DNA from: Candidatus Limnocylindrales bacterium
Lineage (GTDB): Bacteria; Chloroflexota; Limnocylindria; Limnocylindrales; CSP1-4
NCBI GenBank assembly: GCA_036834865.1
Contig: DAITNC010000001.1
Coordinates: 1,939-65,938 of the forward strand
Reading direction: 5' to 3'
DNA: 64,000 nt
In this document: piece after piece, positions 26,735 through 51,089 of the stretch
Layout of the letters: each line of letters starts with the position of its first letter
How positions within the stretch are numbered: the stretch's first letter is position 1
The notes under the pieces: generated by a model
Database searches by the model: none
Told to the model about the DNA's origin: nothing
The model's input: the letters and a program-made list of their open reading frames with translations, nothing else
Made by a program: the position numbers and the translations under genes

Positions 26735-26744
26735 GGCCGGTCGG

Positions 26745-26936: not shown

Positions 26937-27291
26937 TCGAGTCCTCGCCTGTTCGGTGGCGGTCATACCGGGCACGTGACGTGGTGACGTGTAGGGTGCG
27001 ACCCGCTTCGTGGGGGAGCGTAGGGGTCCGGGTGGCCATGCGCCAAGCCGTACCTTCGGTCTAGGAGGGTCGTACGGTGCGGTCGGGATGGGATCAGCGC
27101 CCGGGGGGCCCCCGGGCGGTCGCGAGACCCGCGGTCCCGGGCGATCGACCGAGGAGCTGTCGACGGTCCATCTGGCAGTTGACGCAGCCACGTACGCGAC
27201 GGAGCATGCATCGCCGGGCCGACACCACGGGCGTCGGCGGGACGCGTCCTCACGCGCCCGGGGCATCGCGACGAGGAGCCGACTCCAGGCC

Positions 27292-27852
27292 ATGACGAAC
27301 CGTCCCTCGAGCGAGCAGGCGCAGGTGACGATCGCCTCCGAGGCGGCGCGCTGGGACGATCTCAGCCAGCTGCTCCAGCGCGGCGTGTTCTGCCCGCTCG
27401 CGGCCCGATGCTCCGTCGCTGACTTCCTCACGGGGCAGCTCGGGCTCGACCCCGACTACGTCCGTGACCGGATCGCGACCGTGTTCGTGGACGGCGCGGT
27501 GGTGGACGACCTCGCGGTCGCCACGCTGCGACCCGGCTCGACGCTCACCCTGTCGGCGGCGATGCCCGGGCTCGTGGGGGCGACCCTGCGCAAGGGCGGC
27601 TTCTACTCCGCGATGCGCTCGGAGATCAGCTGGAAGGGCGATGACGACGCGCGCCAGCCGCTCGACGGTCCACCGGGCACGATCCGGCTCAAGCTGTTCA
27701 ACAGCGTCATGCGCGAGATCGGCCCGACCCTGCTGCAGCGCGGCGTCCTGGTCGACCGCCGGGAAGCGGCGAGCGTCGCGGGAGCCCAGGGCACGGACGT
27801 GACCGACGCTCCCGGAGGCACGTGGGTGTCACTCAGGGTGGCCCCGCGATGA
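27292..27852 (+). CDS. hypothetical protein with beta-grasp (MoaD/ThiS-like) features
   Basis: 186 aa; 'IATVFVDGAVVDDLAVATLRPGSTLTL' resembles the C-terminal strand pattern of MoaD/ThiS. Immediately precedes the GG-terminated carrier. Confidence 0.45.
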   Translation: MTNRPSSEQAQVTIASEAARWDDLSQLLQRGVFCPLAARCSVADFLTGQLGLDPDYVRDRIATVFVDGAVVDDLAVATLRPGSTLTLSAAMPGLVGATLRKGGFYSAMRSEISWKGDDDARQPLDGPPGTIRLKLFNSVMREIGPTLLQRGVLVDRREAASVAGAQGTDVTDAPGGTWVSLRVAPR

Positions 27853-27871
27853 GGCGGGTCGGGCCCCGGTC

Positions 27872-28090
27872 GTGACGATCAAGCTGTTCGCCTCATTCCA
27901 GAAGGGGCGCTTCGCGGTCGAGACGAGGGAGTACCCGCCGGCGACGACCGTCGAGGAGATCGTCACGGACCTCCACATCCCGAAGCGCGAGATCGGCGTG
28001 CTGCTGGTGAACGGGCGGCACGTCTCCTTCGATCACCGCCCCGGCGGCGGCGACGTGCTGGCGATCTTCCCGGTCATCGGGGGCGGCTGA
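27872..28090 (+). CDS. MoaD/ThiS-family sulfur-carrier (ubiquitin-like) protein ending in Gly-Gly
   Basis: 72 aa, '...GGGDVLAIFPVIGGG*' with the C-terminal GG directly before the stop. Confidence 0.7.
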   Translation: MTIKLFASFQKGRFAVETREYPPATTVEEIVTDLHIPKREIGVLLVNGRHVSFDHRPGGGDVLAIFPVIGGG

Positions 28091-28097
28091 CCGACGG

Positions 28098-29294
28098 TCA
28101 GCCCGCCAGCGGGATCAGGTGGACGGCTGTCGCCTTGAACGTGACGAGGACCCTCCCGCCCGGGCCCAGCCCCATCTCCTCGGCCGAGGCCCGCGTGATG
28201 GAGGCGACGAGCGAGATCCCGCAGTCGATGGTCACCCGGACCAGCGAGCCCTGGGCAACCATCCTGGAGACGTCGCCCGGGAGCTGGTTCCGGGCGCTCG
28301 AGACGACTCTCGGCAACGAGCCCGTCGCTGACGTTCCCGGTGACCCGGAGACCGGCCCGGACACCTCGCCCGCCGGCGACCCGCCCACAACGCCGGACCA
28401 CAGCGTCACGTCCTCCGGCCGCAGACAGCACAGGACCGCGCGTCCCGGCCCGATGGCGGAGACGGCCTCGATCTGGCAGCCGCCGACGTCGACCATCGCA
28501 ACTCCCGCGCGGGTCGAGACGACGCGGCCAGGCAGGCGGGTCTCGGCGCCCACGAAGGCGGCCACGTCCTCGTCGAACGGCGCCGAGAGCACCCGCTCGG
28601 GCACGTCGCACTGGCGGAGTCGCCCCTCGACGACCACCGCCATCCGGTCGCCGAGACGGACGGCCTCGTCGAGATCGTGGGTCACGACAACGCAGGCGAC
28701 ATGCGTCTCGTGAAGGAGCAGCTCGAGATCGTCCACGAGCTTCGAGCGGGTGGCCGCGTCGACTGACGCGAACGGCTCGTCGAGCAGCAGGAGGTCCGGC
28801 TCGAGGACCAGCGCCCGTGCCAGGCTGACCCGCTGAGCTTCGCCGCTCGAGATCTGGCGGGCCGGACGGCGGCGCAGGTGGCCCACGCCCAGGCGCTCGA
28901 GCCATTCGGCAACCCTCGCCTCGACCTCGCCCGAGGAGACGCCGCGAAAGCGCAACCCGGCGGCGACGTTCGCGAACACCGACGTGTTGAGCAACAGCGG
29001 GTCGGGCAGGACGAGGCCGATGTGCCGACGGAACGCGAGCTCGTCGCGGGGCGCGACCGGCGATCCCCGAAACGAAAGCCGCCCGCGTGAAAGCGGGACG
29101 AGGCACGCCAGGGCCAGCAGGAGCGTGCTCTTCCCGGCCCCGTTCGGGCCGACCACGGCCAGCGTCTCGCGGTCCGCGAGTGCCAGGTGATCGATTGCCA
29201 GGACCGGGCGGGCGCCACGAACCACCACGAGGTCGCTGATCTCGACGAGGGGCGGCGTCGCGTCCGCGTTCGGTTCGTTCATGGTCGTGGGCAC
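28098..29294 (-). CDS. tupC: tungstate/molybdate ABC transporter ATP-binding protein with C-terminal TOBE domain
   Basis: Walker A 'GPNGAGKST', signature 'ISSGEAQR', Walker B 'LLLLDEPF'; C-terminal TOBE-like region. Confidence 0.85.
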   Translation of the reverse strand: MPTTMNEPNADATPPLVEISDLVVVRGARPVLAIDHLALADRETLAVVGPNGAGKSTLLLALACLVPLSRGRLSFRGSPVAPRDELAFRRHIGLVLPDPLLLNTSVFANVAAGLRFRGVSSGEVEARVAEWLERLGVGHLRRRPARQISSGEAQRVSLARALVLEPDLLLLDEPFASVDAATRSKLVDDLELLLHETHVACVVVTHDLDEAVRLGDRMAVVVEGRLRQCDVPERVLSAPFDEDVAAFVGAETRLPGRVVSTRAGVAMVDVGGCQIEAVSAIGPGRAVLCCLRPEDVTLWSGVVGGSPAGEVSGPVSGSPGTSATGSLPRVVSSARNQLPGDVSRMVAQGSLVRVTIDCGISLVASITRASAEEMGLGPGGRVLVTFKATAVHLIPLAG

Positions 29295-29301
29295 GGGCTC
29301 C

Positions 29302-30000
29302 CTAGCGCTGCGGACCGCGCTGCTGGGCCCACGTCAGCACGCCGTTGACCAGGAACGCCAGGGCCAGCAGGACGATGCCGAGCGCGACGGCCTTGATGAA
29401 CTCCCCGCGGCTCACGTCCAGGACGATCGCCGTGGTGAGCACGCGCGTCTGGTGGAGGATGTTGCCGCCGACCATCATCGCGGCGCCCACCTCCGAGATC
29501 ACACTGCCGAAGCCGGCCATGAGCGCCGCCAGCAGCGGCAACCGCGCTTCGCGCCACAGCCACCACACGGTCTGCCATCGCGACGCCCCCAGGCCCATCA
29601 GCTGCAGCCGCAGGCGCGGGTCAAGCTGCCCGAGCGCGGCGACTGTGAGGCCCAGGATGACGGGCGTCGCGATGATCACCTCGGCGATCACCATCGCGGA
29701 CGGCGTGTAGATGAGGCCCAGGTCACCCAGCGGACCACTGCGCCAGAGCGTGAACGCGACGAACAGCCCAACGACGACGGGCGGCAGCGCCATGCCAGTG
29801 TTGACCACGCTGATGACGAGCCCGCGGCTGCGAAACCGCGACAGGGCGAGCCACGTCCCGATCGGCAACCCGATCAGCAGGCTCAGGGCGGTCGCCAGCC
29901 CTGAGACGGCAAGCGACAGGAGGGTGATCTCGACGAGGTCGCCGCCGACCAGGCTCTGGAGCAGCTGCTGGGCCTGGTCGACGAGCGAGCCCGTGGTCAC
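29302..30000 (-). CDS. tupB: tungstate ABC transporter permease
   Basis: 232 aa, six TM helices, EAA-like loop; positioned between the binding protein and the ATPase. Confidence 0.85.
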   Translation of the reverse strand: MTTGSLVDQAQQLLQSLVGGDLVEITLLSLAVSGLATALSLLIGLPIGTWLALSRFRSRGLVISVVNTGMALPPVVVGLFVAFTLWRSGPLGDLGLIYTPSAMVIAEVIIATPVILGLTVAALGQLDPRLRLQLMGLGASRWQTVWWLWREARLPLLAALMAGFGSVISEVGAAMMVGGNILHQTRVLTTAIVLDVSRGEFIKAVALGIVLLALAFLVNGVLTWAQQRGPQR

Positions 30001-30010
30001 GCGCGGCAGT

Positions 30011-30925
30011 CTACTTGAGCGAGCTGTAGTCCTTGCCGGCGTCCGGGTTGAAGAGCGCCAGGCCGTATGTGTCGGTGCCGAACGTGCCGATGATCTGCTG
30101 CCCGGCGGTCCCGGTGACGTAGTCCTCGAACGCCTTTGCGCCCGCGGCGTTGACCTTCGGCCACTTCGCCGGGTTCACGGCGATGACGCTGTAGATGTTG
30201 ATGAGCGACGAGTCGCTCTTCACGAGGGCCTGGAGAGAGAGCTTCGATCTGTTGGCAAGGAACGTCGCGGTGTCGGTCAGCGTGTAGCCGCCCTTTTCCG
30301 AGGCGATCTGCAGCGTCGGCCCCATGCCCTGGCCGGACTGGACGTACCAGCTGCCCGCGGGCGTGATTCCCGCGGACTTCCAGAGGCTCAGCTCCTTGGT
30401 GTTCGTACCGGAGCTGTCATCGCGCGAGACGAACGTCGCAGCCGCGGCGGCGATCTTCTTGAAGGCGTCCACCGCCGAGGTCATGCCGCTGATCCCGGCC
30501 GGATCCGCCGCCGGGCCGACGATCCAGAAGTAGTTGTGCGCCACGAGGCGCCGGTCGACGCCCCATCCGGCGTCCATGAACGCCTGCTCCTGCGTCGGCG
30601 CATGGACGAACAGGACGTCGGCGTTGCCCTGCTGGCCCATCGTGAGCGCCTGGCCCGTGCCGACGGCGACGGTCTTCACGGTGTAGCCGGATGCCTTCTC
30701 GAAGGCGGGCACGAGGACGTCGAGCAGCCCCGAGTCCTGGAGCGAGGTCGTCGTGGCGAGGATCAGGGCGGTGGAGCCGGCCGGGGCGGCACTGGCGACC
30801 GGTGCGCTCGCCTGCGGGCTCGGCGACGCGGCCGAGCTGCAGGCCGCGGCGACCAGGACGAGCGCGATGAGGGGGGCGGTTCGCTCCAGCAGCCTGCGCT
30901 TCAACATCACCGTGCCACGTGCCAC
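30011..30925 (-). CDS. tupA: tungstate ABC transporter substrate-binding lipoprotein
   Basis: Lipobox 'LVAAACSS'; TupA-type 'ILATTTSLQDSGLLD' and 'ADVLFVHAP' motifs. GGAGGA lies 6 nt upstream of a GTG start. Confidence 0.8.
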   Translation of the reverse strand: MARGTVMLKRRLLERTAPLIALVLVAAACSSAASPSPQASAPVASAAPAGSTALILATTTSLQDSGLLDVLVPAFEKASGYTVKTVAVGTGQALTMGQQGNADVLFVHAPTQEQAFMDAGWGVDRRLVAHNYFWIVGPAADPAGISGMTSAVDAFKKIAAAAATFVSRDDSSGTNTKELSLWKSAGITPAGSWYVQSGQGMGPTLQIASEKGGYTLTDTATFLANRSKLSLQALVKSDSSLINIYSVIAVNPAKWPKVNAAGAKAFEDYVTGTAGQQIIGTFGTDTYGLALFNPDAGKDYSSLK

Positions 30926-31209
30926 AACCATTCCTCCAGAGATCCTGCCCACGGCCCACTCGCCCCGGGGAGCCGATGCCGCGTCGACCGAACGAGTGTC
31001 GGTTCGGAGCCCGGCCGGGAAGAGGGCCAGATGTCACCTTGAGCGAGATCATATGTGGCCATTCGGTCCGGCATCAACAGGTGTGCTGCCCATTCCTGTC
31101 CGCTTTACCTCGATATCCAGGCGCGCCTGCCTGACCCGCCGCGGACCCCGGGTAGAATGCAGTCGCGACGGGAGGCGCAACGAGTCCCGGCGAGGCAGCG
31201 GGAGGCGGG
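30926..31209. promoter_or_regulatory. divergent tupA / thiF-like intergenic region (candidate cofactor-responsive control region)
   Basis: 284-nt non-coding gap between divergently transcribed tungstate-transporter and E1-like genes; contains the hairpin ccgaac-gagtgtcg-gttcgg and a relatively AT-richer stretch. Confidence 0.3.
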
Positions 31210-32250
31210 TTGGCGACGAACGAGGTAGAAGACCGCGACCGGTACGCTCGCCAGTCGAGGTTCTGGGCAATCGGAACGGCTGGCCAGGAGCGGCTCAGTG
31301 CGGGCCGCGTCCTTGTCGTCGGGTGCGGTGCGCTCGGTTCCGCCGCGGTGAATCTCCTGGCCCGGGCGGGCGTGGGCCAGATCACGATCGTCGACCGCGA
31401 TTTCGTCGAGCTGGGCAATCTCCAGCGGCAGCTGCTTTTCGACGAGGCGGACGCCGCTGCCGGGACGCCGAAGGCCGTCGCCGCAGCCCTTGCCGTCGGG
31501 CGCATCAACTCCGAGATCGAAGTCCGCCCCTTCGTCGCCGACGTGACCCCGACCAACGTCGAGGAGTTCGTGGCGCATGCTGACGTGGTGCTCGATGGGA
31601 CGGACAACTTCGAGACCCGGTATCTCCTGAACGACGCCTGCGTGAAGCGTGGTGTCCCCTGGGTCTACGGCGGGGTGATCGGGTCGACGGGCATGTCGAT
31701 GACGATCGTGCCGGGCGAGACCCCATGCTTCCGGTGCCTGTTCCCGACGCCGCCCCCGGTCGGCACGATGGAAACCTGCGAGACGGCCGGCGTGCTTGCC
31801 GCGGGCGTCGTCACGGTGGCCGCCATCCAGTGCGCCGAGGTGATGAAGCTCCTCGTCGGCGACAGCCAGAACCGGAGCCGCGGGCTCACCGCCATCGACA
31901 TCTGGACCAACGACCACCTGCAGGCAGAGGGCACGCTCCGTGATCCCGGTTGCCCATGTTGCGGGCAGCGTCGCTTCGAGTACCTCGACGCGGTCGTGAC
32001 GAGCCGAACGGCGTCGCTCTGCGGTCGTGACGCGGTCCAGGTGAGCCCGGGCCGGCCCCTGGCGGTCGACCTCGCCGACCTCGGCCGGAGGCTCGGGGCG
32101 ACCGGGCCGGTGACCTCCAACGACTACCTCGTGCGGTGTGTCGTGGACGGGCACGAGATGACGATCTTCGTCGACGGTCGCGCGATCATCAAGGGCACGT
32201 CCGACCTCGCCGTGGCCCGCTCGCTGTACGCCCGGTATGTCGGCGCGTGA
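31210..32250 (+). CDS. ThiF/MoeB-family E1-like adenylyltransferase
   Basis: 'VLVVGCGALGSAAVNLLARAGVG' nucleotide-binding motif, CxxC...CxCC zinc cysteines. TTG start with GGAGG upstream. Confidence 0.85.
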   Translation: MATNEVEDRDRYARQSRFWAIGTAGQERLSAGRVLVVGCGALGSAAVNLLARAGVGQITIVDRDFVELGNLQRQLLFDEADAAAGTPKAVAAALAVGRINSEIEVRPFVADVTPTNVEEFVAHADVVLDGTDNFETRYLLNDACVKRGVPWVYGGVIGSTGMSMTIVPGETPCFRCLFPTPPPVGTMETCETAGVLAAGVVTVAAIQCAEVMKLLVGDSQNRSRGLTAIDIWTNDHLQAEGTLRDPGCPCCGQRRFEYLDAVVTSRTASLCGRDAVQVSPGRPLAVDLADLGRRLGATGPVTSNDYLVRCVVDGHEMTIFVDGRAIIKGTSDLAVARSLYARYVGA

Positions 32251-33400
32251 CGTGATCTACCTGGACAACGCCGCGACCTCGTTTCCGAAGCCGCCGGGCG
32301 TGGCGGAGAGCATCGTCGACTTCCTCGAGCACGGCGCCGGAAACCCGGGCCGGTCCGGCCATTCCCTGGCGATGGCCGCGCAGACCGTCGTCGCCGCCAC
32401 GAGGCGCCAGCTCGCCTCGCTGTTCGGGGTGCCCGACCCTTCGCGCGTCGTCTTTGCGCTCAACGCGACCGACGCCCTGAACACCGCGCTCTGGGGACTG
32501 CTGCGGCCGGGCGACCGCGTCGTCACCACCAGCATCGAGCACAACGCCGTCGCCCGGCCGCTCCACGCCCTGGCCGAACGCGGCATCGAGGTCACCCGGG
32601 TCGCCTGCGCCCCGGACGGCATGCTCGACCTGGACGACCTGGTCCGCGCGCTCCGGTCCGGCCCGGTCCGGCTGGTCGCGATGTGCCACGCCAGCAATGT
32701 CGTCGGCACGATCCTCCCGGTCCGGGACGCGGCGCAGCGGGCCCACGAGCACGGGGCGCTCTTCCTCCTGGACGCGGCGCAGACCGCGGGCGTCCTGCCC
32801 ATCGACGTGCGTGAGATGGGGATCGACCTGCTCGCAGTTCCGGGGCACAAGGGCCTGCTCGGGCCGACGGGCACCGGCGGGCTCTACGTGGCGCCTGACG
32901 TACGGCTCTCGCCGCTGCGCCAGGGCGGCACGGGCACGAGGTCCGAAGACGAGCGCCAGCCCGAGGAGCTGCCCGAGGCGCTCGAGGCGGGCACGCTCAA
33001 CACCGTGGGCATCGCCGGGCTGGGCGCAGCCCTCCGCTACCTCGGGGAGCGGGGGCAGCAGGGCATCCGGGCCCACGAGGTCGCCCTGACGACCAGGCTC
33101 ATCGACGGGCTGCGGGACGTCCCGGGCGTCCGGGTCCATGGGTCCGGGGATGCGGGCCGCCAGGTTGGAGTCGTCTCGCTGTCCGTGGAGGGCTGGGAGC
33201 CGGTGGACCTTGCAGCGGTGCTGGACAGCTCGTTCGGGATCGCGGTCAGGGCGGGGCTGCACTGCGCGCCGCTCGCGCACCGAACGCTGGGTACCTTCCC
33301 GCGCGGCACTGTCCGGCTTTCACCGGGCTGCTTCACCACCGACGAAGACGTGGACCAGGCGCTGGCCGCACTGCGGAAGCTGGCCGGCAGCGCCGCCTGA
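32237..33400 (+). CDS. cysteine desulfurase (class V aminotransferase)
   Basis: 'YLDNAATSFPKP', 'SGHKGLLGPTGTGGLYV' (PLP Lys), 'AGLHCAPLAHRTLG' (active-site Cys loop). Confidence 0.85.
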   Translation: MSARDVIYLDNAATSFPKPPGVAESIVDFLEHGAGNPGRSGHSLAMAAQTVVAATRRQLASLFGVPDPSRVVFALNATDALNTALWGLLRPGDRVVTTSIEHNAVARPLHALAERGIEVTRVACAPDGMLDLDDLVRALRSGPVRLVAMCHASNVVGTILPVRDAAQRAHEHGALFLLDAAQTAGVLPIDVREMGIDLLAVPGHKGLLGPTGTGGLYVAPDVRLSPLRQGGTGTRSEDERQPEELPEALEAGTLNTVGIAGLGAALRYLGERGQQGIRAHEVALTTRLIDGLRDVPGVRVHGSGDAGRQVGVVSLSVEGWEPVDLAAVLDSSFGIAVRAGLHCAPLAHRTLGTFPRGTVRLSPGCFTTDEDVDQALAALRKLAGSAA

Positions 33401-33429
33401 GCCCCGCGGTTCCCCATGGCGGACGTCGC

Positions 33430-34740
33430 TCATCGAAGACATTGGAACGGGCCGGTGCACCAGAGGCAGGCCGCGCAGGGCACCCTGCTGATGTGGCAGT
33501 CCTGCTCGAAGTCGGCGCCTCTCACGTAGTCGCACATCGCCAGGTTGCAGTCGTAGCAGAACGGAAAGTCGTACGCCGTCACGTCTCCGCGGAAGGTGCG
33601 CCATTCCTCGGCATTCCAGGTCTCGAGGATCCCCTGCGTCGCGACGTTGCCGAAGGTCCTTGGCTCCACCACCTTGACGAGCCCGGCCAGGTGGCACTGG
33701 AAACGGTGCCAGAGGAAGTAGCAGGGGTGAAGGTCGCCATCCCACGAGACAAAGGCCGATCCTTCCTCGACGAACTCGCACCGCCGCACCTGGGTCGGAA
33801 CCGTGTTCGGGAGCTGCAGGTCGACACCGAGCTCGCGCGCGATGCCCGTTGCGTCGCCGAACGCCTCCTCGACCTCGCGGAGGCGCGCCTCGTCGAAGCG
33901 GAGCAGCTCGGCCACCTTGAGCGACACGTGCTGGGCGGTGGCGTCGGCGATCATGCCGCGGACGGATTCGATCGCCCGGGCGTCCTCGGCCGACGGCGAG
34001 ATCTGCATGAACGTGTCGAGGTAGCGCCCGAAGTCCACTCCTTCCGCGGCCGCCCGGTCTCGCCACGCTCGGTAGATCCCGAGCGCGCGATCGGACGTTG
34101 GGCTGAACGCCGCTTCGCCTGCCATCGCGGCGTCGTACGGGAGCATGTGGCTGACGATGAGGAACCCGAAGCCGTGGCCGGCAGCCCACCTGACCAGGTC
34201 CGGAAGCTGGTGGAGGTTGCTCCGCATCGCGACGAACTCGAGGCCCAGGCTGACCGATCGGCCGGAGCGGGCTGCCGAGTCGTGGAGCCACCCGGCGGCG
34301 GACTCGATCGCCCCGATGCGCGCCCCGCCGTGGAGCGCCTTGAGCTGGCCCGGCTCGACCGAATCGGCCGAGATGCAGATGCGATCGACGCCCGCCGCGA
34401 CCAGCGACTCGGCTCGCCGGTGCCCGAGCAGCTGGCCGTTTGTCTGGAACCCGATCCAGCCACTGGTGGGCATCGCGGCCCGCGCCGTCTCGATGAACCC
34501 CTCGAGTCCCCGGTGGAGCGTCGGCTCGCCGATCCCGTTGAGGACGAGCGCGTCGAGGTTCGGAAAGGCGGGGGCCAGGCGTTCGAAGGTCTCCGCGCTC
34601 ATGTCGCCCTCGACGAGACCCTGCCCCGGGGCCTGCTTGACGCACATGGCGCAGCGAAGGTTGCAGCGCGTCGTCACCTCCACGAAGAGCTTGGAGGGAT
34701 ACGGGCGGCGATACGCAGGCATCGTCACGGAGGGCGGCAT
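33430..34740 (-). CDS. radical SAM protein with SPASM domain (MoaA/NifB/PqqE family; Cmo-like)
   Basis: 'TTRCNLRCAMC' CX3CX2C cluster, plus a C-terminal seven-Cys SPASM-type pattern (CX9C, CX2CX5C, CX6CX2CX2C). Confidence 0.8.
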   Translation of the reverse strand: MPPSVTMPAYRRPYPSKLFVEVTTRCNLRCAMCVKQAPGQGLVEGDMSAETFERLAPAFPNLDALVLNGIGEPTLHRGLEGFIETARAAMPTSGWIGFQTNGQLLGHRRAESLVAAGVDRICISADSVEPGQLKALHGGARIGAIESAAGWLHDSAARSGRSVSLGLEFVAMRSNLHQLPDLVRWAAGHGFGFLIVSHMLPYDAAMAGEAAFSPTSDRALGIYRAWRDRAAAEGVDFGRYLDTFMQISPSAEDARAIESVRGMIADATAQHVSLKVAELLRFDEARLREVEEAFGDATGIARELGVDLQLPNTVPTQVRRCEFVEEGSAFVSWDGDLHPCYFLWHRFQCHLAGLVKVVEPRTFGNVATQGILETWNAEEWRTFRGDVTAYDFPFCYDCNLAMCDYVRGADFEQDCHISRVPCAACLWCTGPFQCLR

Positions 34741-34930
34741 GTGCAAAGCGTGACCGTTCCGAGCCCGGCGTGCAGGGCCACCGCGCCCCTTGGGCGGGGA
34801 CCCCTCGATGGCGTTGGGGCGAACCGGTAGTCTACGGATGGCCGTCCCGAGCTCGGTGCTGATCCCGCGCGCGAGCGGCAGGTTCCTTTCGATTCCGCCT
34901 TCGTTCGATGCCGCCCTGGAGGGACGTCGC

Positions 34931-36145
34931 ATGCCCGGGTTCGAGGAAGCGCGCCGGATCGTGCTCGAGCGGGTCAGCCCCATGGGCTGCGAGGTGGTGC
35001 CGCTGCTCGGCGCGGTCGGGCGGGTCCTTGCCGCCGACCAGGCAGCCCCCTGGGACATGCCCCAGTGGGACAACTCCGCGATGGACGGCTTCGCGGTCCG
35101 GGCATCCGACTGCGCCGATCCGAACGGCCTGGCCGTTGCCGGCTTTCTCCCCGCCGGCCAACCCGCGGTCGAGGCGCTCGCGAACGGAACGGCGATCCGG
35201 ATCATGACGGGTGCGCCGCTGCCGCCGGGCGCCGACGCGGTCGTCCCCTTCGAGGAGGCGGAGGAGCGCGCCGGGCTGGTCTTCGCGAGGCGTCGCCCGG
35301 TCGCGGGCGATCACGTCCGCCGGAGGGGCGGCGACATCCGCGAGGGCGCGACCGCGCTCGAGGCGGGGGCCGTCATCGGGGCCGCCGAGGTCTCCCTGCT
35401 CGCGTCACTGTCCAGGACGTCGGTGCCCGTCGTCCGCCGGCCCCGGGTCGCGATCCTCTCCACCGGGGACGAGCTCCTGGAGCCCGGAGAGCCGCTCGCC
35501 GCCGGGAAGATCTACAACAGCAATGCGCAGGCGTTGGCGGCGGCCGCCCTGCGGGCCGGCGCGATACCGGTCGTGCTGCCCATCGCGCGCGACGACCGCG
35601 CGGCGTTGCGGACCCAGCTCGTCGAGGGCCTGCGCGCCGACGCGCTGGTCACGACCGCCGGCGTCTCGGTCGGGGACCGCGACCTCGTGCGCGAGGTGTT
35701 GCGCGACCTTGCGGTCGAGGAGGTGTTCTGGAAGGTCGACATCCAGCCCGGCCGCCCGACGGCATTCGCGCTCTCGGGGATCACGCCGGTCTTCTCGCTG
35801 CCCGGGAACCCGGTCGCCGCACTGCTCACGTTCGAGATGTTCGTCCGGCCGGCCCTGCGCCGGATGATGGGTCATTCGCGGCCGCTGGACGTGCCGGTCC
35901 GCGCCCGTCTCGGAGACGCGGTCATGCCAAGGCAGGATCGAGTCACCCTGAGGCGGGTCCGCCTCGAGCGGATCGGCGACCAGATCGTGGCGTCGAGCGC
36001 GGGCAGCCAGGCCACGGGCTTCCTGCGGACGATGGTCGGCGCCGATGGGGTCGCCATCATTCCCGCCGGCCTGGACAGCGTTGCCGCCGGCAGTGTCGTG
36101 GACGTCTACACGCTCCGCGAGGACTGCCTGATCGGGGGCGCCTGA
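34931..36145 (+). CDS. moeA: molybdopterin molybdenum/tungsten-transferase MoeA
   Basis: MoeA family ('TGAPLPPGADAVV', 'ILSTGDEL', 'LPGNPVAA'). GGAGGG RBS 7 nt upstream of the ATG; the long in-frame upstream extension was rejected. Confidence 0.85.
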   Translation: MPGFEEARRIVLERVSPMGCEVVPLLGAVGRVLAADQAAPWDMPQWDNSAMDGFAVRASDCADPNGLAVAGFLPAGQPAVEALANGTAIRIMTGAPLPPGADAVVPFEEAEERAGLVFARRRPVAGDHVRRRGGDIREGATALEAGAVIGAAEVSLLASLSRTSVPVVRRPRVAILSTGDELLEPGEPLAAGKIYNSNAQALAAAALRAGAIPVVLPIARDDRAALRTQLVEGLRADALVTTAGVSVGDRDLVREVLRDLAVEEVFWKVDIQPGRPTAFALSGITPVFSLPGNPVAALLTFEMFVRPALRRMMGHSRPLDVPVRARLGDAVMPRQDRVTLRRVRLERIGDQIVASSAGSQATGFLRTMVGADGVAIIPAGLDSVAAGSVVDVYTLREDCLIGGA

Positions 36146-36193
36146 GCGCGCCCCAGGGACTGGATCCGGCTCCGCGCTCGCGGAGCCGGACGC

Positions 36194-37930
36194 TCAGAAG
36201 TTGAAGACCGCGTCCAGGTCCGCGTCCTTCACCTGGAACTTCACGTTGTGCGGCGCCAGCGCCTCCTCCTCGAAGAAGCGGGGCAGGCGATCGTCCGCCG
36301 CGCTGAAACCGGCCCGGGTGTTGAAGTCGCGCTCCGCGGTGAGCACCTTCTTGCCCAGGGCCGTCACGTCGTCGGCCGTGAGGTTGATGTCGTAGAAGCC
36401 GTTCAGGAGCTCGACCAGCGCGTTGAAGGTCTCGGGCTGGTCGAGGACCGGGAAGGCGATGAAGAGACACATGCCGGTGGAGTCGATCGCCGCGGTCGCG
36501 ATCTGCAGGTTGCGTGACAGCTCAACCTGGCCCTCCGGCTTGAGGGGATCGACGAAGCCGCCCACCTTGAGGATGTTTGCCGTGACGGCGTAGCCGGCCG
36601 TGTGGTCGGCGCCCATCGGGGTCGTGGCGTAGGTGACGCCCATGCCCTGGACGGCCCGTGGATCGTAGGCCGGGAGCGCCTGGTTCTTGACCACCGGCAC
36701 TCGCTCGACGCCGAAGGCCTTGCCGGTCGCGCCGGCGCCCGAGCCGATGATCCGGCCGAGCGGGGTGCCCTTGCCGACCTCGGACAGGACGCGGATGGCG
36801 CCCTGGCCGTCGCCGAACTTGAGGAGCCCGCCTTCCATGGCGACGCCGATGGCCACGCCGGTCTCGATCGTGTCGAGACCGAAGTCATCGTCCATCCGGT
36901 CGAGCTGCTGGATGATGTCGAGGTCGGAGATGCCGCAGTTGCCCCCATGCGACCAGACGGTCTCGTACTCGGCCTGCTTGCTCAGGTACTTGCCGGTCGT
37001 GTCGTTGTAGATGCCGGAGCACTGGATGATGCAGCCGCGGTGGCAGCCGTGCGTGGCCTCACCGCCTCGCTCGGTCATCGTCGCGGCCTGCGTCTCGCCG
37101 CTGATCTTCGTCGCGCCCTCGAACTGGCCCGCGCTGAAGTTGCGCGTCGGGTAGCCGCCAGCCTCGTTGAGGATGTTCGTCAGGACGTTGGTCCCGAACG
37201 CCGGGAGGCCGGTGCCGGTGACGCCGTGGCTCCGAAGCCCCTCGTTGAAGATCTTCGCCGCGGCCTTGAAGCGCGCCGCGTCGGCCGGCGGTCGGGTCAC
37301 GGTCCCGGTCTCGTCGAGGATGAACGCCTTGATCTTCTTGGAGCCCATCACAGCGCCCACGCCGCCGCGCCCCATGTGGCGGGTCGGGTGCAGCTCGCGG
37401 TCGCAGGCCGCGATCGAGGCGGCTGGCAGCATCATCTCGCCGGCTTGGCCGATGAGCATGAAGGTGACCTTCTCGCCATAGGCGGCCCGGAGCGCCTCGA
37501 CGCTGGCGTAGGTGCCGAGGCCCTTGAGGCCGTTGTCAACCTTGAACGAGACGCCCTTCCTGTTGATGAGGACCGTCCAGAGGTCGTCGCCCGCGGGCCT
37601 GCCTTCGACGATGATCGCCGCGTAGCCGAGCCGGGCGATCGCCTGGCCCGCCTGGCCGCCGGCGTTCGCCTCCTTGATCCCGCCCGTGAGCGGGCTCTTG
37701 CAGCCGACGGAGATGCGGCCGCTCGTGGATGCCGCGGATCCGGTGAGCATGCCCGGCGCGAAGACGAGCTTGTTGGCCGCGCTCAGCGGGTGGCACTGCG
37801 GATCGACCTCGGCGCTCACGACGAGCGAGGTCATGGCGCGGCCGCCCAGCCCGGCGTAGTCGCCAAGCGGCTGGATCGTCGCCTTCGGGCCGCCCTCGGC
37901 ACTCATGTCGATGCGAAGGATCTTGTCCAT
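36194..37930 (-). CDS. aor: tungsten-containing aldehyde:ferredoxin oxidoreductase
   Basis: AOR N- and C-terminal domains ('MDKILRIDMS', 'GRISVGCKSPLTGG', 'DSTGMCLF'). Confidence 0.9.
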   Translation of the reverse strand: MDKILRIDMSAEGGPKATIQPLGDYAGLGGRAMTSLVVSAEVDPQCHPLSAANKLVFAPGMLTGSAASTSGRISVGCKSPLTGGIKEANAGGQAGQAIARLGYAAIIVEGRPAGDDLWTVLINRKGVSFKVDNGLKGLGTYASVEALRAAYGEKVTFMLIGQAGEMMLPAASIAACDRELHPTRHMGRGGVGAVMGSKKIKAFILDETGTVTRPPADAARFKAAAKIFNEGLRSHGVTGTGLPAFGTNVLTNILNEAGGYPTRNFSAGQFEGATKISGETQAATMTERGGEATHGCHRGCIIQCSGIYNDTTGKYLSKQAEYETVWSHGGNCGISDLDIIQQLDRMDDDFGLDTIETGVAIGVAMEGGLLKFGDGQGAIRVLSEVGKGTPLGRIIGSGAGATGKAFGVERVPVVKNQALPAYDPRAVQGMGVTYATTPMGADHTAGYAVTANILKVGGFVDPLKPEGQVELSRNLQIATAAIDSTGMCLFIAFPVLDQPETFNALVELLNGFYDINLTADDVTALGKKVLTAERDFNTRAGFSAADDRLPRFFEEEALAPHNVKFQVKDADLDAVFNF

Positions 37931-38300
37931 GCCGTGCGTGTCCTTTCTCGTCCGCGACCCCCACGGGATCTTCGTCGCCCGGCGAGCTCCTCGGCGGACC
38001 CCCGGGCCCACCCGGCGCGTGGCCATGTGTGTCCACTCTCCAGTCGGGCTCGCCTCCGCTCCGGCGAAGGGTCAGGTCCCGAGCCTGGCAGCGTACGGAT
38101 CCTGGTGACCTGCACGATCGCGGGCGCCGGCCCGTCGACATAGTGCCGAAGGACACGATACTCCGAGGGACTCCTGATCTGCCCGACCCCCGGGGAAACC
38201 AAGCGACCACCGGCGCAGTGGCTCGCTGGCCGTTCCGCGACCCTGCGTCCCGGCCGTCGTCGCGCCCACCTACCATTGGCGGGCAGATGCGGACCCCAGC

Positions 38301-41270
38301 GTGAAGCCACAACCGGTCGGTCCGGTGACGCTCGTCGAGCCCGGTGGGCGGGTCCACCGCTCGACCGTCACCGGGGCGCGGCGCCGCGAGCTGGAGGCGG
38401 CGCTCCGGCTGGCGGTGCGCGGCGAGGTCGGCTTCGATGGCGGCACGCGCGCCGTCTACGCCACCGACTCGTCGAACTACCGCCAGGTGCCCCTTGGGGT
38501 CGTCTTCCCGCGTGACCACGAGGATGTCGTCGCGTCGATGCGTGTCTGCGCCGAGTTCGACGCGCCGGTCCTCGCCCGCGGCGCGGGCACCAGCCTGGCG
38601 GGCCAGGCCTGCAACGTCGCGGTCGTGCTCGACACAAGCCGGCACATGAGGAAGATCCTCGAGATCGACCCGGTCGCTCGGACCGCCCGGGTGCAGCCGG
38701 GCGTGGTGCTCGACGACCTGCGACGCGCTGCAGAGGAGCATGGGCTGACGTTCGGGCCCGACCCCGCGACGCACGCCTGGTGCACGCTCGGCGGGATGAT
38801 CGGCAACAACTCGTGCGGCAGCCACGCGCTCTTCGCCGGCAAGACCGTCGACAACGTCGAGCGGCTCACCGTCGTGGAGTACGGGGGCGCCACCCTGGAC
38901 GTGGGCGCCTACGACGACGTCGCCTTCGGTGCGGTGGTGGCCCGCGGCGGCCGCCTGGCGGAGGTGCTCGAAGGCCTGCGCGAGATCGGGGGCAGGCACG
39001 CGGACCTGGTGCGGGCGCGCTTCCCGCAGATCCCCCGGCGGGTGAGCGGCTACAACCTGGACCAGCTCCTGCCCGAGCACGGCTTCAATGTCGCCCGCGC
39101 CCTCGTCGGGACGGAATCCACCTGCGCGGTGGTCACCGAGGCGACGCTGCGCCTGAGCGCCAGCCCGAGGCACCGCCGCCTCGTGGTGCTGGGCTACCGG
39201 GACGTCTTCATTGCCGCCGACGCCGTGCCGTCGCTGCTCCGCCATCCGCTGCTGGCGCTGGAGGGATTCGACGGCACCCTCGTCGACCAGATGCGGGCAC
39301 GCCCGCTGAACGTCGAGCACCTCGCGCTCCTGCCGGAGGGCGGCGGCTGGCTGATGGCCGAGCTCGGCGCCGACGATCCTCGCGAGGCTGACCGGCTGGC
39401 CAAACGGTTCGTCGCCGACCTGCCGGGCGAGGTCACCTGGCGCCGCTACGACGACGCGGAGCGGCAGGGCCGGGTGTGGCTCGTGCGCGAGTCCGGTCTC
39501 GGTGCCACCGCCATCACGGAGGACGGCACACGCAACCACGAGGGCTGGGAAGACGCGGCCGTCGCGCCGGAGCAGCTCGGGGCCTACCTCCGCGCGATCA
39601 CCGCGCTGCGGGCGGAGTTTGGCTACTCGGGTGCCTGGTACGGCCACTTCGGCCAGGGGTGCGTGCACACGCGCAACAACTTCGACTTCAGCACCGCCGA
39701 GGGCCTTGGGGCCTACCGGCACTTCATCGAGCGGGCCGCCGATCTCGTCGTGTCGCTGGGCGGCTCCCTGTCGGGCGAGCACGGCGACGGCCAGGCCCGC
39801 GGGGAGCTCCTCGTCCGGATGTACGGGCCCGACCTGGTCGACGCCTTCCGCCAGTTCAGGGCCGTCTTCGATCCGCGCGGGCGGATGAACCCGGGCAAGG
39901 TCGTGGACGCCTACCCGATCGATGCCAACCTGCGCTACGGGCCCACCTACCGGCCGGCGAGCCTGGGGCCGTCGACGTTCGCGTTCGGCAGCGCCGGACA
40001 TTCGCTCCAGGCAGCGGCAGAGCGGTGCGTGGGCGTGGGTCGCTGCCTGCGCGACGACGCCGGGACCATGTGCCCCTCTTTCCGCGCCACCCGCGACGAG
40101 CGGCACTCGACGCGGGGCCGCGCGAAGCTCCTTGTCGAGCTGTTCCAGGGTGAGACCACCCGGGGGAGCTGGCGCAATCGGGACGTTCGCGAGGCGCTCG
40201 ACCTCTGCCTCGCGTGCAAGGGCTGCGCCGTGGATTGCCCCACCGGCGTGGACATGGCGGCATACAAGTCGGAGTTCCTCTCTCACCATTACGCGCGCCG
40301 GCTGCGGCCGCGGGCCATGTACGCGCTCGGCCTCCTGCCCTGGACGGCGAGGGTGGCGACCCGCCTGCCCCGGTTGTCGAACGCCATCCTGGGCGCGCCC
40401 GGCGTCGGGAAGGCCGTACGCCGGCTGGCGGGGATCACGACGGCACGGCCCGTTCCGCGGTTCGCCGGGCGGTCATTCCGCCACGGCAGCACCGCCGCGG
40501 TTCGCCGGGACGATCCGCATGCCACGGTCGTCGTCTGGCCCGACACGTTCACGGACGCTTTCCGCCCCGAGATCGCCGCCGATCTCGTGGCCGTCCTCGA
40601 GGCCATCGGCGAGCGCGTGGCCGTTCCCTCGTCGTGGGCGTGCTGTGGCAGGCCGCTCTACGACGCCGGCATGCTGGGGCTGGCCCGCCGCTCCCTCACG
40701 GACCTCCTGGACGTGCTCGAGCCGTGGACGTCCCGCGGGATCCCGGTGGTCGTGCCCGAGCCGAGCTGCCTGGCCGCGTTCCGGGACGAGCTCCCCGCGC
40801 TCCTTCCCGGCGACCCCCGGTCGGCGGTGCTGGCATCGCTGGCGCGCAGCCCTGCCGAGCACATGCTGGCGACCCCGGCGTTCGACGCGGCGATCGCCGA
40901 CGCGCAGGCCCGCCGTCGCGGCGGCGGCGGGCCTGCGCGGGCCGTGGTGCATCCTCATTGTCACGGCCGGGCGATCGGGACGCCCCGGGCGGATCGCGAG
41001 CTCCTGGAGCGGCTGGGCTTCCGGCCCGAGATGCTCGACGCCGGCTGCTGCGGACTCGCCGGGTCGTTCGGGTACCGGGCGGAGCACGAGGCGTTGTCCC
41101 GGCGGATCGGCGCGGAATACTGGCTTCCCAGGGTGAGGACCGCGATCGACGGGGGCGAGAAGGCCGCGCTGGTGGTGGATGGCTTCAGCTGCGCGACGCA
41201 GCTCGAACAGCTCTCGGCTCTCGAGTCGACCGCCCTCGTCTCGCTCGTGCGTCGATCGCTCGGCTGCTGA
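38301..41270 (+). CDS. FAD-binding oxidase fused to Fe-S/CCG domains (GlcD-GlcF-like; D-lactate/glycolate dehydrogenase family)
   Basis: 989 aa: N-terminal PCMH FAD domain ('GAGTSLAGQA'), ferredoxin-like 'CLACKGCAVDCP', and two C-terminal Cys-rich CCG repeats. Confidence 0.85.
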   Translation: MKPQPVGPVTLVEPGGRVHRSTVTGARRRELEAALRLAVRGEVGFDGGTRAVYATDSSNYRQVPLGVVFPRDHEDVVASMRVCAEFDAPVLARGAGTSLAGQACNVAVVLDTSRHMRKILEIDPVARTARVQPGVVLDDLRRAAEEHGLTFGPDPATHAWCTLGGMIGNNSCGSHALFAGKTVDNVERLTVVEYGGATLDVGAYDDVAFGAVVARGGRLAEVLEGLREIGGRHADLVRARFPQIPRRVSGYNLDQLLPEHGFNVARALVGTESTCAVVTEATLRLSASPRHRRLVVLGYRDVFIAADAVPSLLRHPLLALEGFDGTLVDQMRARPLNVEHLALLPEGGGWLMAELGADDPREADRLAKRFVADLPGEVTWRRYDDAERQGRVWLVRESGLGATAITEDGTRNHEGWEDAAVAPEQLGAYLRAITALRAEFGYSGAWYGHFGQGCVHTRNNFDFSTAEGLGAYRHFIERAADLVVSLGGSLSGEHGDGQARGELLVRMYGPDLVDAFRQFRAVFDPRGRMNPGKVVDAYPIDANLRYGPTYRPASLGPSTFAFGSAGHSLQAAAERCVGVGRCLRDDAGTMCPSFRATRDERHSTRGRAKLLVELFQGETTRGSWRNRDVREALDLCLACKGCAVDCPTGVDMAAYKSEFLSHHYARRLRPRAMYALGLLPWTARVATRLPRLSNAILGAPGVGKAVRRLAGITTARPVPRFAGRSFRHGSTAAVRRDDPHATVVVWPDTFTDAFRPEIAADLVAVLEAIGERVAVPSSWACCGRPLYDAGMLGLARRSLTDLLDVLEPWTSRGIPVVVPEPSCLAAFRDELPALLPGDPRSAVLASLARSPAEHMLATPAFDAAIADAQARRRGGGGPARAVVHPHCHGRAIGTPRADRELLERLGFRPEMLDAGCCGLAGSFGYRAEHEALSRRIGAEYWLPRVRTAIDGGEKAALVVDGFSCATQLEQLSALESTALVSLVRRSLGC

Positions 41271-41346
41271 CGCTGCTGGCCGCAGCTCCGCTCCGTCGAC
41301 CGGGGTCCGGGCCGCGGCCGGCTCCCGGTCGACGACCACAGCCCGG

Positions 41347-42249
41347 CTACCAGTATTCCTCGGTGTGGATCGTCCCGATGGCGCGGCCGCGGTCGCGGAC
41401 GAACCCGCGGTCCGCCAGCCGCCCGATCACGGTCTCGATCATCCCGGGGTTGCCGCACAGGTAGACGTGGAAGTTGTCCGGCTCCAGCTGGAGGCCGGTC
41501 GCCTCCTCGATGACCCCGGAGAAGAGGACCTCCTGGAGGTAGCCGGTACGGCCACGCCAGGTGGGATCCTCCTGGGGGCGCGTGATGACCGGGAGGTAGG
41601 TGAGGTTGGGGCAGTGCCGGGCGAGGCTTGTCAGCTCGGTTCGGTAGCCCAGGTCCCACGAGCAGCGCGCACCGTGGAGGACGACGATGCGGCGGGTCCC
41701 GCCGCACTCCAGGTCGGTGCGCAGCATGGAGATGTACGGTGCGAGGCCGGTCCCGGTGGCCACCAGGATCACGTGGTGGTCCCGGGGGGCCTTCTCCAGG
41801 GTGAACATCCCCACCGCCTTCGGGCCGACGTAGATGCGGTCCTTGATCCCGAGGTTGAAGAGGCGCGGCGTGAGATCCCCGCTCATGACCACGGTGATGC
41901 AGAACTCCAGGAACTCGTCGGACTGGCTGCTCGACGCGATCGAGTAGGCCCGCCGGATCAGCTTGTCGGGGTCCGGGCGCGCGGTCGTGACGGCTCGCTG
42001 CGCCGCCGACTCGGCGGCCGGCTGGGCCGGCGCGGTGACCTCCGCCGTCCGGGCCTCCTCCGGGCGGTACGCCAGCTCGTCAGGCTCGGCCTCGTCGATC
42101 CGGGGCTCCGAGGCCTTGAGGCCGAGGACGACGTACTGGCCGGCCTTGAACTCGAACTGGGGCGCGTCGGGGACGATCCGCAGGATGATCAGCCCGGGCG
42201 CCAGCTCGACTCGCTGGGCCACGGTCGCGTTGTACTCCGCTGCCGCCAT
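41347..42249 (-). CDS. fpr: ferredoxin-NADP+ reductase (plant-type FNR)
   Basis: 'RAYSIASS' FAD motif, 'ATGTGLAPY' NADP motif, C-terminal 'TEEYW'. Confidence 0.85.
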   Translation of the reverse strand: MAAAEYNATVAQRVELAPGLIILRIVPDAPQFEFKAGQYVVLGLKASEPRIDEAEPDELAYRPEEARTAEVTAPAQPAAESAAQRAVTTARPDPDKLIRRAYSIASSSQSDEFLEFCITVVMSGDLTPRLFNLGIKDRIYVGPKAVGMFTLEKAPRDHHVILVATGTGLAPYISMLRTDLECGGTRRIVVLHGARCSWDLGYRTELTSLARHCPNLTYLPVITRPQEDPTWRGRTGYLQEVLFSGVIEEATGLQLEPDNFHVYLCGNPGMIETVIGRLADRGFVRDRGRAIGTIHTEEYW

Positions 42250-42315
42250 ACGGCCTCCCAATCGCCAGGTGCAGGATCCGCGGCCGGCTGGTCACGGATC
42301 GCCTGATCGTTCGAA

Positions 42316-42391
42316 TGGCGCCCCCGGCAGGAGTCGAACCCGCAACCAACCGGGTAGAAACCGGTCGCTCTGTCCATTGAGCTACGGGGGC
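42316..42391 (-). tRNA. tRNA-Arg (anticodon TCT)
   Basis: Reverse complement folds as a cloverleaf: GCCCCCG acceptor, T-loop GGTTCGACTCC, anticodon stem ACCGG/CCGGT with loop TTTCTAC, CCA encoded. Confidence 0.8.
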
Positions 42392-42570
42392 GTCACGTTA
42401 GCGTAGCCCAAGCGCGGACCCTCGCGACCCGCGCAACGCGAGACGGCCGCCGGGCGACAGCTGCGCCGCGCGCCGGTCGCGCTCGGGCCGCGCCTGTCGC
42501 CGAACGCCCGTGCTATGCTCCGCGGCCCGCGGGCGGTCTCGAGCCGCGCCGCGTCACCGGAGGTTGCAGC

Positions 42571-44369: not shown

Positions 44370-44419
44370 GGGGCCGCTCCAGTCGGCCGCCGCGACCGAC
44401 GGCCCGACCCGTGCCCGCC

Positions 44420-51085: not shown

Positions 51086-51089
51086 CCGG

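Follow-up and report, generated by a model that had tools for sequence, protein, structure and literature searches.

A single-subunit tungsten aldehyde:ferredoxin oxidoreductase of a Limnocylindrales bacterium is encoded beside part of its probable cofactor-feeding machinery

We analysed a gene cluster around a tungsten aldehyde:ferredoxin oxidoreductase (AOR) in a 64,000-nucleotide stretch of DNA from a Candidatus Limnocylindrales bacterium (Chloroflexota; assembly GCA_036834865.1, contig DAITNC010000001.1, positions 1,939 to 65,938), hereafter called the window. The cluster extends from 27292, the start of its first gene, to 42249, the start of its last, minus-strand gene (Table 1). It is real but largely ordinary: an AOR accompanied by an apparent tungstate importer and tungsten-cofactor genes. 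With a probability of roughly 0.68, the locus combines a single-subunit AOR with some of the genes that supply its cofactor, and its ubiquitin-like sulfur relay performs ordinary molybdopterin (MPT) synthase chemistry. At stake are the assembly and insertion of the tungsten (W) bis-pyranopterin cofactor of the AOR family, and the roles of the radical SAM ('cmo') and ThiS-like (WorX, AorD/E) genes that neighbour such enzymes.

Since the high GC content of the window (~72%) floods lists of open reading frames (ORFs) with spurious frames, genes were called by third-position GC (GC3). About 52 GC3-supported ORFs of the window were scanned with Pfam, and the genes of the region also with NCBIfam. 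All genes named in an earlier note on this DNA sit where that note had placed them, and hidden Markov model (HMM) and motif checks support their identities. The closest PDB matches of the AOR are 9mqx (5e-87), Pyrococcus furiosus AOR (1e-78) and Aromatoleum aromaticum AorB (2e-75), while formaldehyde:ferredoxin oxidoreductase (FOR; 2e-47) and BamB/WOR5 (1e-12 or weaker) are much farther. The Fe-S cysteines C296/C300/C304 and C488 and the pterin motifs DDFGLD348 and DSTGMC483 are present, and an EYE motif and a histidine align with E313 and H448 of the P. furiosus enzyme, the catalytic Glu and His. Judged by its sequence, the protein is a true AOR-clade enzyme, predicted to contain W-bis-MPT and to oxidize aldehydes. 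The first Fe-S cysteine pair is spaced CxxxC (C[HQ][RK]GC.I[QR]C) in 22 of the 22 scorable cassette-linked AORs (loci L002-L078, see below), a clade signature; P. furiosus AOR and 9mqx have CxxC instead.

The sulfur relay comprises a ubiquitin-like protein (Ubl), an E1 adenylyltransferase and a cysteine desulfurase (CSD). The Ubl gene starts 19 nt downstream of a gene for a conserved 186-aa protein (unk186). Described previously as a 72-aa MoaD/ThiS-like protein ending in GG, the Ubl does belong to that family (ThiS, PF02597, 37.6 bits against a gathering score of 22.5; Ub-Mut7C, 42.5 bits, likewise above gathering); its exact end is VIGGG, that is, GGG. All but one of the 42 Ubl orthologues preserve the terminal GG (...FP.xGG; 41/42), and the nearest solved relatives are a P. 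furiosus MoaD-like protein (1vjk, 3.9e-4) and Escherichia coli MoaD. Designed Kelch 'SAKe' proteins, the top PDB matches, were rejected as repeat-summing artefacts. A few Nitrospirota-type orthologues (L059, L036, L054, L040, L063) run 2-22 residues beyond the GG; these would need C-terminal processing before activation, unless they are assembly or stop-codon artefacts.

The E1 misses equivalog and subfamily cut-offs (PRK12475, 371 versus 510); among solved structures, E. coli MoeB (4e-38) and ThiF come nearest to it. It carries the nucleotide-binding motif GCGALG38 and the CxxC zinc motifs CFRC173 and CPCC248. A rhodanese domain is absent, and the protein has instead a C-terminal domain of ~95 aa with conserved LCGRDAVQVSP (including Cys271) and DGRAIIKGT; in alignments, LCGR(D/N)AVQVSP is conserved across the C-terminal domains of such long-form E1s. 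The CSD gene overlaps the E1 stop by 14 nt, in agreement with the translational link proposed earlier. The best solved relatives of the CSD are SufS and CsdB, and its PLP-lysine motif (GHK203-205) and catalytic Cys343 (in HCA) are in place; catalytic motifs are thus intact in the CSD, E1 and AOR, as they are in the radical SAM protein discussed below. Among 13 E1 orthologues, a CSD was found only with the long form (seven long-form loci versus 0/3 short-form loci), which suggests that the extra E1 domain may mediate the hand-off between E1 and desulfurase. Selenium delivery by an SclA-like lyase was considered for the CSD and rejected (NF040779, 377 versus a cut-off of 525; no selD nearby).

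We then looked at the neighbourhood in other genomes. An alignment of homologues of the radical SAM/SPASM protein (rSAM; SAM, S-adenosylmethionine) yielded 246 matches, and the best-scoring 80 were examined as genome loci with 10-kb flanks, numbered with the prefix L. They span Chloroflexota/Limnocylindrales, Anaeromyxobacter, Acidobacteriota, Nitrospirota, Betaproteobacteria, Desulfobacterota, Syntrophales and Geobacter, the closest being Chloroflexota/Limnocylindrales loci with 83-87% identity. Genes were counted by local tblastn and HMM searches. Among the 39 informative loci (those with 5 kb or more to each side of the rSAM gene), 26 contain AOR, 22 Ubl, 20 unk186, 11 any E1, 6 Tup, 4 CSD, 4 MoeA and none the FAD/Fe-S gene. 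Ubl accompanies 36 of the 44 rSAM-anchored loci that have an AOR, unk186 30 and any E1 21 (CSD 6, Tup 6, MoeA 5, FAD/Fe-S 0). Since these loci had been picked through the rSAM, we added an AOR-anchored sample of six distinct places whose AORs are 73-96% identical. Ubl and ThiF were present in all six, rSAM/SPASM and Tup in five each, MoaA and MoeA in three each, unk186 and a desulfurase in two each, MoaE and MoaC in one each, and the FAD/Fe-S and FNR genes in none.

The core therefore recurs in dozens of genomes, far beyond chance. Because AOR, Ubl, ThiF-type E1 and rSAM occur together in six or more phyla, the sulfur relay is linked to AOR, and the suggested tie of Ubl, E1 and rSAM to AOR was borne out by the conserved neighbourhood (6/6, 6/6 and 5/6 of the AOR-anchored places). 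In Chloroflexota relatives the genes form contiguous operons: AOR, unk186, Ubl, E1 and rSAM in this order on one strand (L010), or unk186, Ubl, E1 and CSD (L007). L088, whose AOR is 96% identical, has the exact gene order of the window including MoeA.

The earlier note had reported no MoaE and had reasoned that the relay is therefore not part of general molybdenum cofactor (Moco) chemistry. E. coli MoaE (query 100% identical to PDB 1fm0_E), MoaC and MoaA were therefore run by phmmer against every six-frame ORF of both the window and the loci; the strong matches of the MoaC and MoaA queries fall on real ORFs. The absence holds for the region and for the whole 64-kb window, in which neither PF02391 nor E. 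coli MoaE gave a match. MoaC and MoaA were likewise not found in the six-frame ORFs of the window, apart from a weak match of the rSAM to MoaA. With MoaA, MoaC, MoaE and MogA/MoaB all absent from the 64 kb, the island is not self-contained, contrary to what had been supposed.

The conclusion drawn from this absence did not hold, since the same Ubl adjoins moaE in orthologous cassettes. In Anaeromyxobacter oryzae Red232 (L016; NZ_AP025591.1, cassette at about 5,258,863-5,280,170) the order is AOR-unk186-Ubl-E1-MoaC-MoaE-rSAM, with MoaA and MoeA divergent. L025 reads AOR-unk186-Ubl-MoaC-MoaE-rSAM, L015 and L032 contain Ubl-E1-MoaC-MoaE, and L091 has AOR-Ubl-MoaE-rSAM with CSD and ThiF alongside. 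L093 has AOR-Ubl-ThiF-MoaC-rSAM, adjoining MoeA, MoaA and Tup. Pfam PF02391 confirms MoaE in L016, L025, L015, L032, L030 and L091. A MoaD-like gene that is followed elsewhere by moaE and complements general Moco synthesis had been named beforehand as a finding that would speak against a separate pathway; the first half of this was found, as gene adjacency in other genomes only. Because orthologous cassettes place it beside moaE, moaC, moaA and moeA, the Ubl is most simply a MoaD-type carrier for dithiolene sulfur, and on this comparison it is probably the usual MoaD-type small subunit of MPT synthase, travelling with this AOR clade. Of the two products proposed earlier for the relay, the dithiolene is thus likely and a separate sulfido pathway is disfavoured.

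We infer the following route. TupABC would bring in tungstate. The SufS-like CSD would draw sulfur from cysteine as a persulfide and pass it directly to the E1/Ubl pair: E1 would adenylate the C-terminal glycine of the Ubl, and the persulfide would turn the adenylate into a thiocarboxylate. Together with a MoaE encoded elsewhere in the genome, the Ubl thiocarboxylate would convert cyclic pyranopterin monophosphate (cPMP) to MPT, building the pyranopterin dithiolene. MoeA would then insert tungsten, and two MPT would end on one W in AOR. The rSAM and unk186, as conserved extra factors, would serve an AOR-specific and probably late step.

Table 1. Features of the AOR cluster and its borders (window coordinates)
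Feature	Position	Strand	Basis
HTH_17 (excisionase-type) DNA-binding protein, 73 aa	26745..26966	-	Pfam PF12728, 46.9 bits
unk186, conserved 186-aa protein	27292..27852	+	ThiS/MoaD-like beta-grasp core + linker + second alpha/beta part
ThiS/MoaD-family ubiquitin-like sulfur carrier (Ubl, WorX-type), 72 aa	27872..28090	+	ThiS + Ub-Mut7C, Pfam
tupC, ATPase with TOBE	28098..29294	-	ABC_tran + TOBE; closest to WtpC
tupB, permease	29302..30000	-	NF038017 253 (cut-off 100); TupB NF041773 144 (cut-off 320)
tupA, TupA-like binding protein	30011..30907	-	NF041772 217 (cut-off 400)
Divergent intergenic region tupA/E1, 302 bp	30908..31209		promoter-like sites, both strands
MoeB/ThiF-type E1 adenylyltransferase, long form	31210..32250	+	ThiF (PF00899) 256 bits
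SufS-like (Group-II) class-V cysteine desulfurase (CSD)	32237..33400	+	Aminotran_5; TIGR01977 455 bits (cut-off 377)
Radical SAM/SPASM 'putative metalloenzyme maturase' (rSAM)	33430..34740	-	TIGR04311 558 bits (cut-off 400); Radical_SAM + SPASM
MoeA	34931..36145	+	MoeA_N, MoCF_biosynth, MoeA_C, all above Pfam gathering
Single-subunit (Class I) tungsten AOR	36194..37930	-	AFOR_N 190 bits + AFOR_C 253 bits (Pfam)
FAD-linked oxidase fused to Fe-S + CCG domains, 989 aa	38301..41270	+	FAD_binding_4, FAD-oxidase_C, Fer4_8, CCG (Pfam)
FNR-like NAD(P)-flavoprotein	41347..42249	-	Pfam
tRNA-Arg(TCT)	42316-42391	-	

Several points weigh against this reading of the relay. Function is deduced throughout from gene context, sequence and predicted structure. 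A MoaE partner has to be assumed, since the 64-kb window encodes no MoaE, MoaC or MoaA. Against the NCBIfam MoaD models the Ubl stays under the cut-offs (moaD_arch, 20.7 versus 49.5), and by Pfam it is equally ThiS-like. Locus L030 encodes, beside its AOR cassette, a MoaD-MoaE fusion (6947-7924, minus strand; ThiS and MoaE domains in one ORF, MoaX-like) and pairs it with a separate Ubl, unk186, E1, CSD, MoaC and TupABC. Because both the fusion and the Ubl are present there, the Ubl may not be simply redundant with MoaD, and this leaves room for a distinct extra role of the Ubl/unk186 pair. Finally, in 13 of the 39 informative loci the rSAM is an orphan whose 10-kb flanks contain neither AOR nor Ubl nor unk186; the rSAM family is therefore not strictly bound to AOR. 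Orphan TIGR04311 members occur in Geobacter (L071, L072, L080), Desulfobacteraceae (L028, L035) and Acidobacteriota (L026, L027), and their neighbours in L071 and L028 are unrelated, for example an extracytoplasmic function (ECF) sigma factor, a major facilitator superfamily (MFS) transporter and a histidine kinase. Such orphans either act in trans or serve other clients of the family.

The L030 arrangement, in which a second MoaD would be superfluous, also bears on the possibility that the Ubl thiocarboxylate feeds sulfur other than that of the dithiolene: a terminal sulfido ligand on W, or sulfur inserted by the rSAM, in a separate AOR-specific sulfuration pathway. FOR and glyceraldehyde-3-phosphate:ferredoxin oxidoreductase (GAPOR), both relatives of AOR, have been reported to be activated by sulfide. 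Also in favour, the window has no MoaE, and the canonical pathway has no place for the conserved rSAM and unk186. Yet in most of the cassettes with moaE (L016, L025, L091, L015 and L032) the Ubl is the sole MoaD-like gene beside it. A study of AOR by cryo-electron microscopy and quantum mechanics/molecular mechanics, the best current model of the W site, favours two oxo ligands and reports no sulfido (PMC10413684). In Thermococcus kodakarensis, deletion of tk1065, the Ubl gene next to AOR, roughly halved cellular MPT in sulfur-poor medium, lowered AOR activity to ~54% and abolished FOR activity; a fall in total MPT fits a MoaD-type role (PMC11323500). We consider a separate sulfuration pathway quite unlikely.

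Ordinary MPT-synthase chemistry need not be confined to AOR. E1, CSD and Ubl might be the organism's sole housekeeping MoeB, sulfur donor and MoaD, which serve all molybdenum and tungsten enzymes and are co-regulated with aor. In favour of this, the E1 most resembles enzymes of the housekeeping kind, namely PRK12475 ('MoeB/ThiF family') and, in the PDB, E. coli MoeB; the window shows no further MoaD or MoeB; and cassettes of other phyla hold complete MoaA, MoaC, MoaE and MoeA, as a sole copy of the pathway would. The Ubls of T. kodakarensis are, moreover, functionally redundant (PMC11323500). What makes this explanation rather unlikely is the close physical association with a single AOR clade in six phyla or more, the two MoaD-type genes within the L030 locus, and the case of L094, where Ubl and ThiF lie in the aor operon despite a nearby molybdoenzyme of the dimethyl sulfoxide (DMSO)-reductase type. 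We retain, as more probable, a relay that would provide dithiolene sulfur for the AOR it is encoded with.

The rSAM had been called 'Cmo-like', which is correct only at the level of the superfamily. The archaeal-type model TIGR04317, however, scored 219 against a cut-off of 380, in two stretches of which the best spans only the N-terminal residues 16-215, while TIGR04311 was passed. By profile score, the protein belongs to a sister family of TIGR04317 (tungsten-cofactor oxidoreductase rSAM maturase) and is not a member of the latter; both families already carry maturase names in NCBIfam. The SPASM domain (PF13186, 49 bits), a C26x3C30x2C33 motif and 11 mostly invariant C-terminal cysteines were identified. 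No close relative was found among solved structures.

The one fresh element of the cluster is the unk186 family, a conserved partner protein with ~1,200 cluster representatives and no Pfam model. Neither unk186 (Pfam and NCBIfam) nor ten divergent members (Pfam) gave a significant match. A word-indexed search returned 317 homologues, all unnamed and without Pfam domains, and a profile run against 1.84 billion cluster representatives recovered 1,214 members with E<=1e-3, of which 1,087 reached E<=1e-10. An AlphaFold2 model built from 28 sequences was reasonably confident (pLDDT 79, pTM 0.76) and contains a ThiS/MoaD-like beta-grasp core, in line with the earlier description of a second beta-grasp-like protein upstream of the Ubl. 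In the place of the terminal GG of sulfur carriers, unk186 has an invariant SAAMPG..GA.LR stretch, predicted to be flexible, which runs on into the second alpha/beta part. Two identities were rejected for unk186: a duplicate of the Ubl (hhalign gave a 15-column match only, at 7.6% probability) and a MoaE, to which it has no recognisable likeness. A tblastn search for annotated examples on plasmids found no match.

This second beta-grasp domain with its invariant internal linker, the conserved terminal GG of the Ubl and the dedicated E1 would also suit a protein conjugation system similar to SAMPylation, in which Ubl and E1 modify AOR or its maturation factors and carry no sulfur. T. kodakarensis Ubls, including the one adjacent to AOR, do form protein conjugates (PMC11323500). 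But neither this locus nor the 80+ related loci contain a gene for an E2-like protein or a JAMM-type or other deconjugase, the CSD is translationally coupled to the E1, and moaE and moaC adjoin the Ubl in orthologous cassettes. Conjugation is, in our view, very improbable beside sulfur transfer by a MoaD-type Ubl.

For unk186 and the TIGR04311 rSAM we tentatively propose a joint role in an undescribed late step specific to AOR, the making or insertion of the W-bis-pyranopterin cofactor; this is possible, though doubtful. Here unk186 might act as a carrier or chaperone with a MoaD-like domain that docks on the Ubl/MPT-synthase machinery through its beta-grasp core, and its SAAMPG..GA.LR loop might be offered either to the cofactor or, as a substrate, to the rSAM. 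For the AOR family, we know of no chaperone dedicated to the cofactor and no assembly factor for bis-MPT. Two further unnamed ORFs are candidates of the AOR neighbourhood: one of 128 aa without a Pfam match, conserved in two AOR cassettes (L089/L090 and L093), where it lies between the MoaA and MoeA genes, and one of 51 aa between MoaC and rSAM in L093 (11403-11558).

Comparison with described systems indicates that the novelty of the combination had been overstated, since WorX with thiF (PMC13328260), tk1064-1066 (PMC11323500) and aorDE (PMC6365974, PMC9295118) are already published. The T. kodakarensis genes run from AOR (tk1066) through a MoaD-family Ubl (tk1065) to a radical SAM enzyme (tk1064) (PMC11323500). 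Like the cluster in the window, this locus and Pyrococcus aor-cmo place AOR beside a MoaD/ThiS-type Ubl and an rSAM proposed to mature the W cofactor. Unlike there, the rSAM here is of the TIGR04311 family and the locus adds E1, CSD, TupABC, MoeA and unk186; the T. kodakarensis E1 (tk2117) is encoded away from the AOR locus. 'WorX' is the name given by the Adams laboratory to the ThiS-like gene beside many tungsten oxidoreductases, for which thiF and 'SAM-like' neighbours were noted and a role in pterin cofactor biosynthesis was predicted (PMC13328260). Cetobacterium somerae CsWOR87, a single-subunit tungsten oxidoreductase (WOR)/AOR, has an adjacent ThiS-like gene and thiF with TupABC nearby, as here; the likeness is one by description, which mentions no desulfurase, unk186-type protein or specific SPASM rSAM family (PMC13328260).

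The aor operon of A. aromaticum (aorABCDE) likewise includes small MoaD-like accessory genes, whose products AorD and AorE are putative W-cofactor maturation factors (PMC6365974, PMC9295118). Co-expression of aorDE raised the specific activity of recombinant AOR from 4.5 to 16 U/mg, 3.6-fold (PMC9295118). Compared by description, two tandem beta-grasp-type genes in this operon would parallel unk186 and Ubl, which makes AorE a candidate homologue of unk186. The A. aromaticum enzyme has three subunits and is NAD-linked, whereas the AOR of the window is single-subunit, without AorA or AorC. With the E. coli system of MoaD/MoaE, MoeB and IscS/TusA the locus shares its predicted chemistry: E1 would adenylate the GG, CSD supply the sulfur, and the thiocarboxylate give the dithiolene. 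It differs in that the window has no MoaE, a SufS-like CSD of TIGR01977 replaces IscS and the rhodanese/TusA relay, the E1 has its extra ~95-aa domain, and the Ubl stays under the MoaD equivalog cut-offs. The selenium-dependent molybdenum hydroxylase locus of Enterococcus faecalis places the selenocysteine lyase SclA (EF2568), of the same CSD subfamily, beside a pterin-metal enzyme; in the window the SclA model is not passed, there is no selD, yqeB or yqeC, and the CSD has the Ubl/E1 pair as its partner.

That is, the locus is a fuller-than-usual variant of a known AOR maturation neighbourhood and not a new pathway. AORs are wanted as biocatalysts for the reduction of acids to aldehydes, and cofactor maturation limits their heterologous production. 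The survey provides a candidate parts list with Ubl, E1 and rSAM as core, unk186 as a frequent extra, and CSD, MoaE, MoaC, MoaA, MoeA and Tup as options. The fullest cassette is that of A. oryzae Red232, which is cultured, has a complete genome and makes knockouts feasible. Beyond this parts list and the pointer to A. oryzae, the window itself adds little; interest now centres on unk186 with its relatives and on what the SPASM rSAM catalyses.

Of the metal-supply genes, tupABC is inserted between Ubl and E1 in the window and its nearest relatives, with gaps of 7-10 nt between the tup genes. TupA has a lipoprotein signal (lipobox) and, at residue 52, a TTTS motif, which we take to be typical of TupA. 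Best match and context favour a TupABC tungstate importer, though the equivalog cut-offs were missed. In the tupA/E1 intergenic region three promoter-like sites were found versus 0.4 expected; sigma-70-like sites lie at 31131-31158 (plus strand) and 31077-31048 (minus strand), as consensus matches only. MoeA scores ~335 with the NCBIfam equivalogs, under their cut-offs of 440-560. It is a molybdopterin metal-insertion enzyme, presumed to insert W here; its gene is at the same place in L088 and absent in L002-L004. Riboswitches for Moco or the tungsten cofactor upstream of aor, tup or Ubl were searched with Rfam and not found, neither at gathering score in the whole window nor at E<=1 over 26500-42500.

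The FAD/Fe-S and FNR genes had been taken for a redox partner module of the AOR, which the comparison contradicts: the FAD/Fe-S gene occurs in 0/44 and 0/6 AOR loci, and both genes are missing from L088, where the AOR gene lies 560 bp from a DNA methyltransferase gene. Since L088, with an AOR 96% identical, lacks both, we regard them as neighbours outside the module. Lying between AOR and tRNA-Arg, they look like a recent two-gene insertion beside a tRNA. A link of FNR to AOR through ferredoxin is possible, though FNR is not conserved. In three Limnocylindrales-like metagenome-assembled genomes (L009, 2897-7809; also L006 and L007), three redox genes lie upstream of AOR. They encode an FNR-like, a PyrK/NfnA-like (FAD_binding_6 and DHODB_Fe-S_bind) and a GltD/NfnB-like protein (Fer4_20 and Pyr_redox_2), and this trio suggests a ferredoxin:NAD(P) oxidoreductase as partner for this AOR clade.

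On the other side, 325 bp of intergenic DNA separate the HTH_17 gene from the divergently oriented unk186, and of the relatives only the nearest (L004, L003, L088) keep an HTH_17 gene at this place. Its product may be a local regulator and is peripheral to the cluster; farther cassettes have sigma-54 activators with a MimR_N domain in its place. A mobile genomic island bounded by HTH_17 and tRNA-Arg was considered and rejected. The same flanks recur in L004, L003 and L088, with an acyl-CoA dehydrogenase and a class-III aminotransferase on one side and a DNA methyltransferase on the other. In the rest of the window (1-26700 and 44000-64000) no further Mo/W enzymes or Moco genes were found. These parts encode core metabolism: beta-oxidation genes, methylmalonyl-CoA mutase with MeaB, GTP cyclohydrolase I, a 2-oxoacid dehydrogenase complex with lipoyl synthase, an amino-acid ABC transporter and, at 2-1306, an NAD-type aldehyde dehydrogenase.

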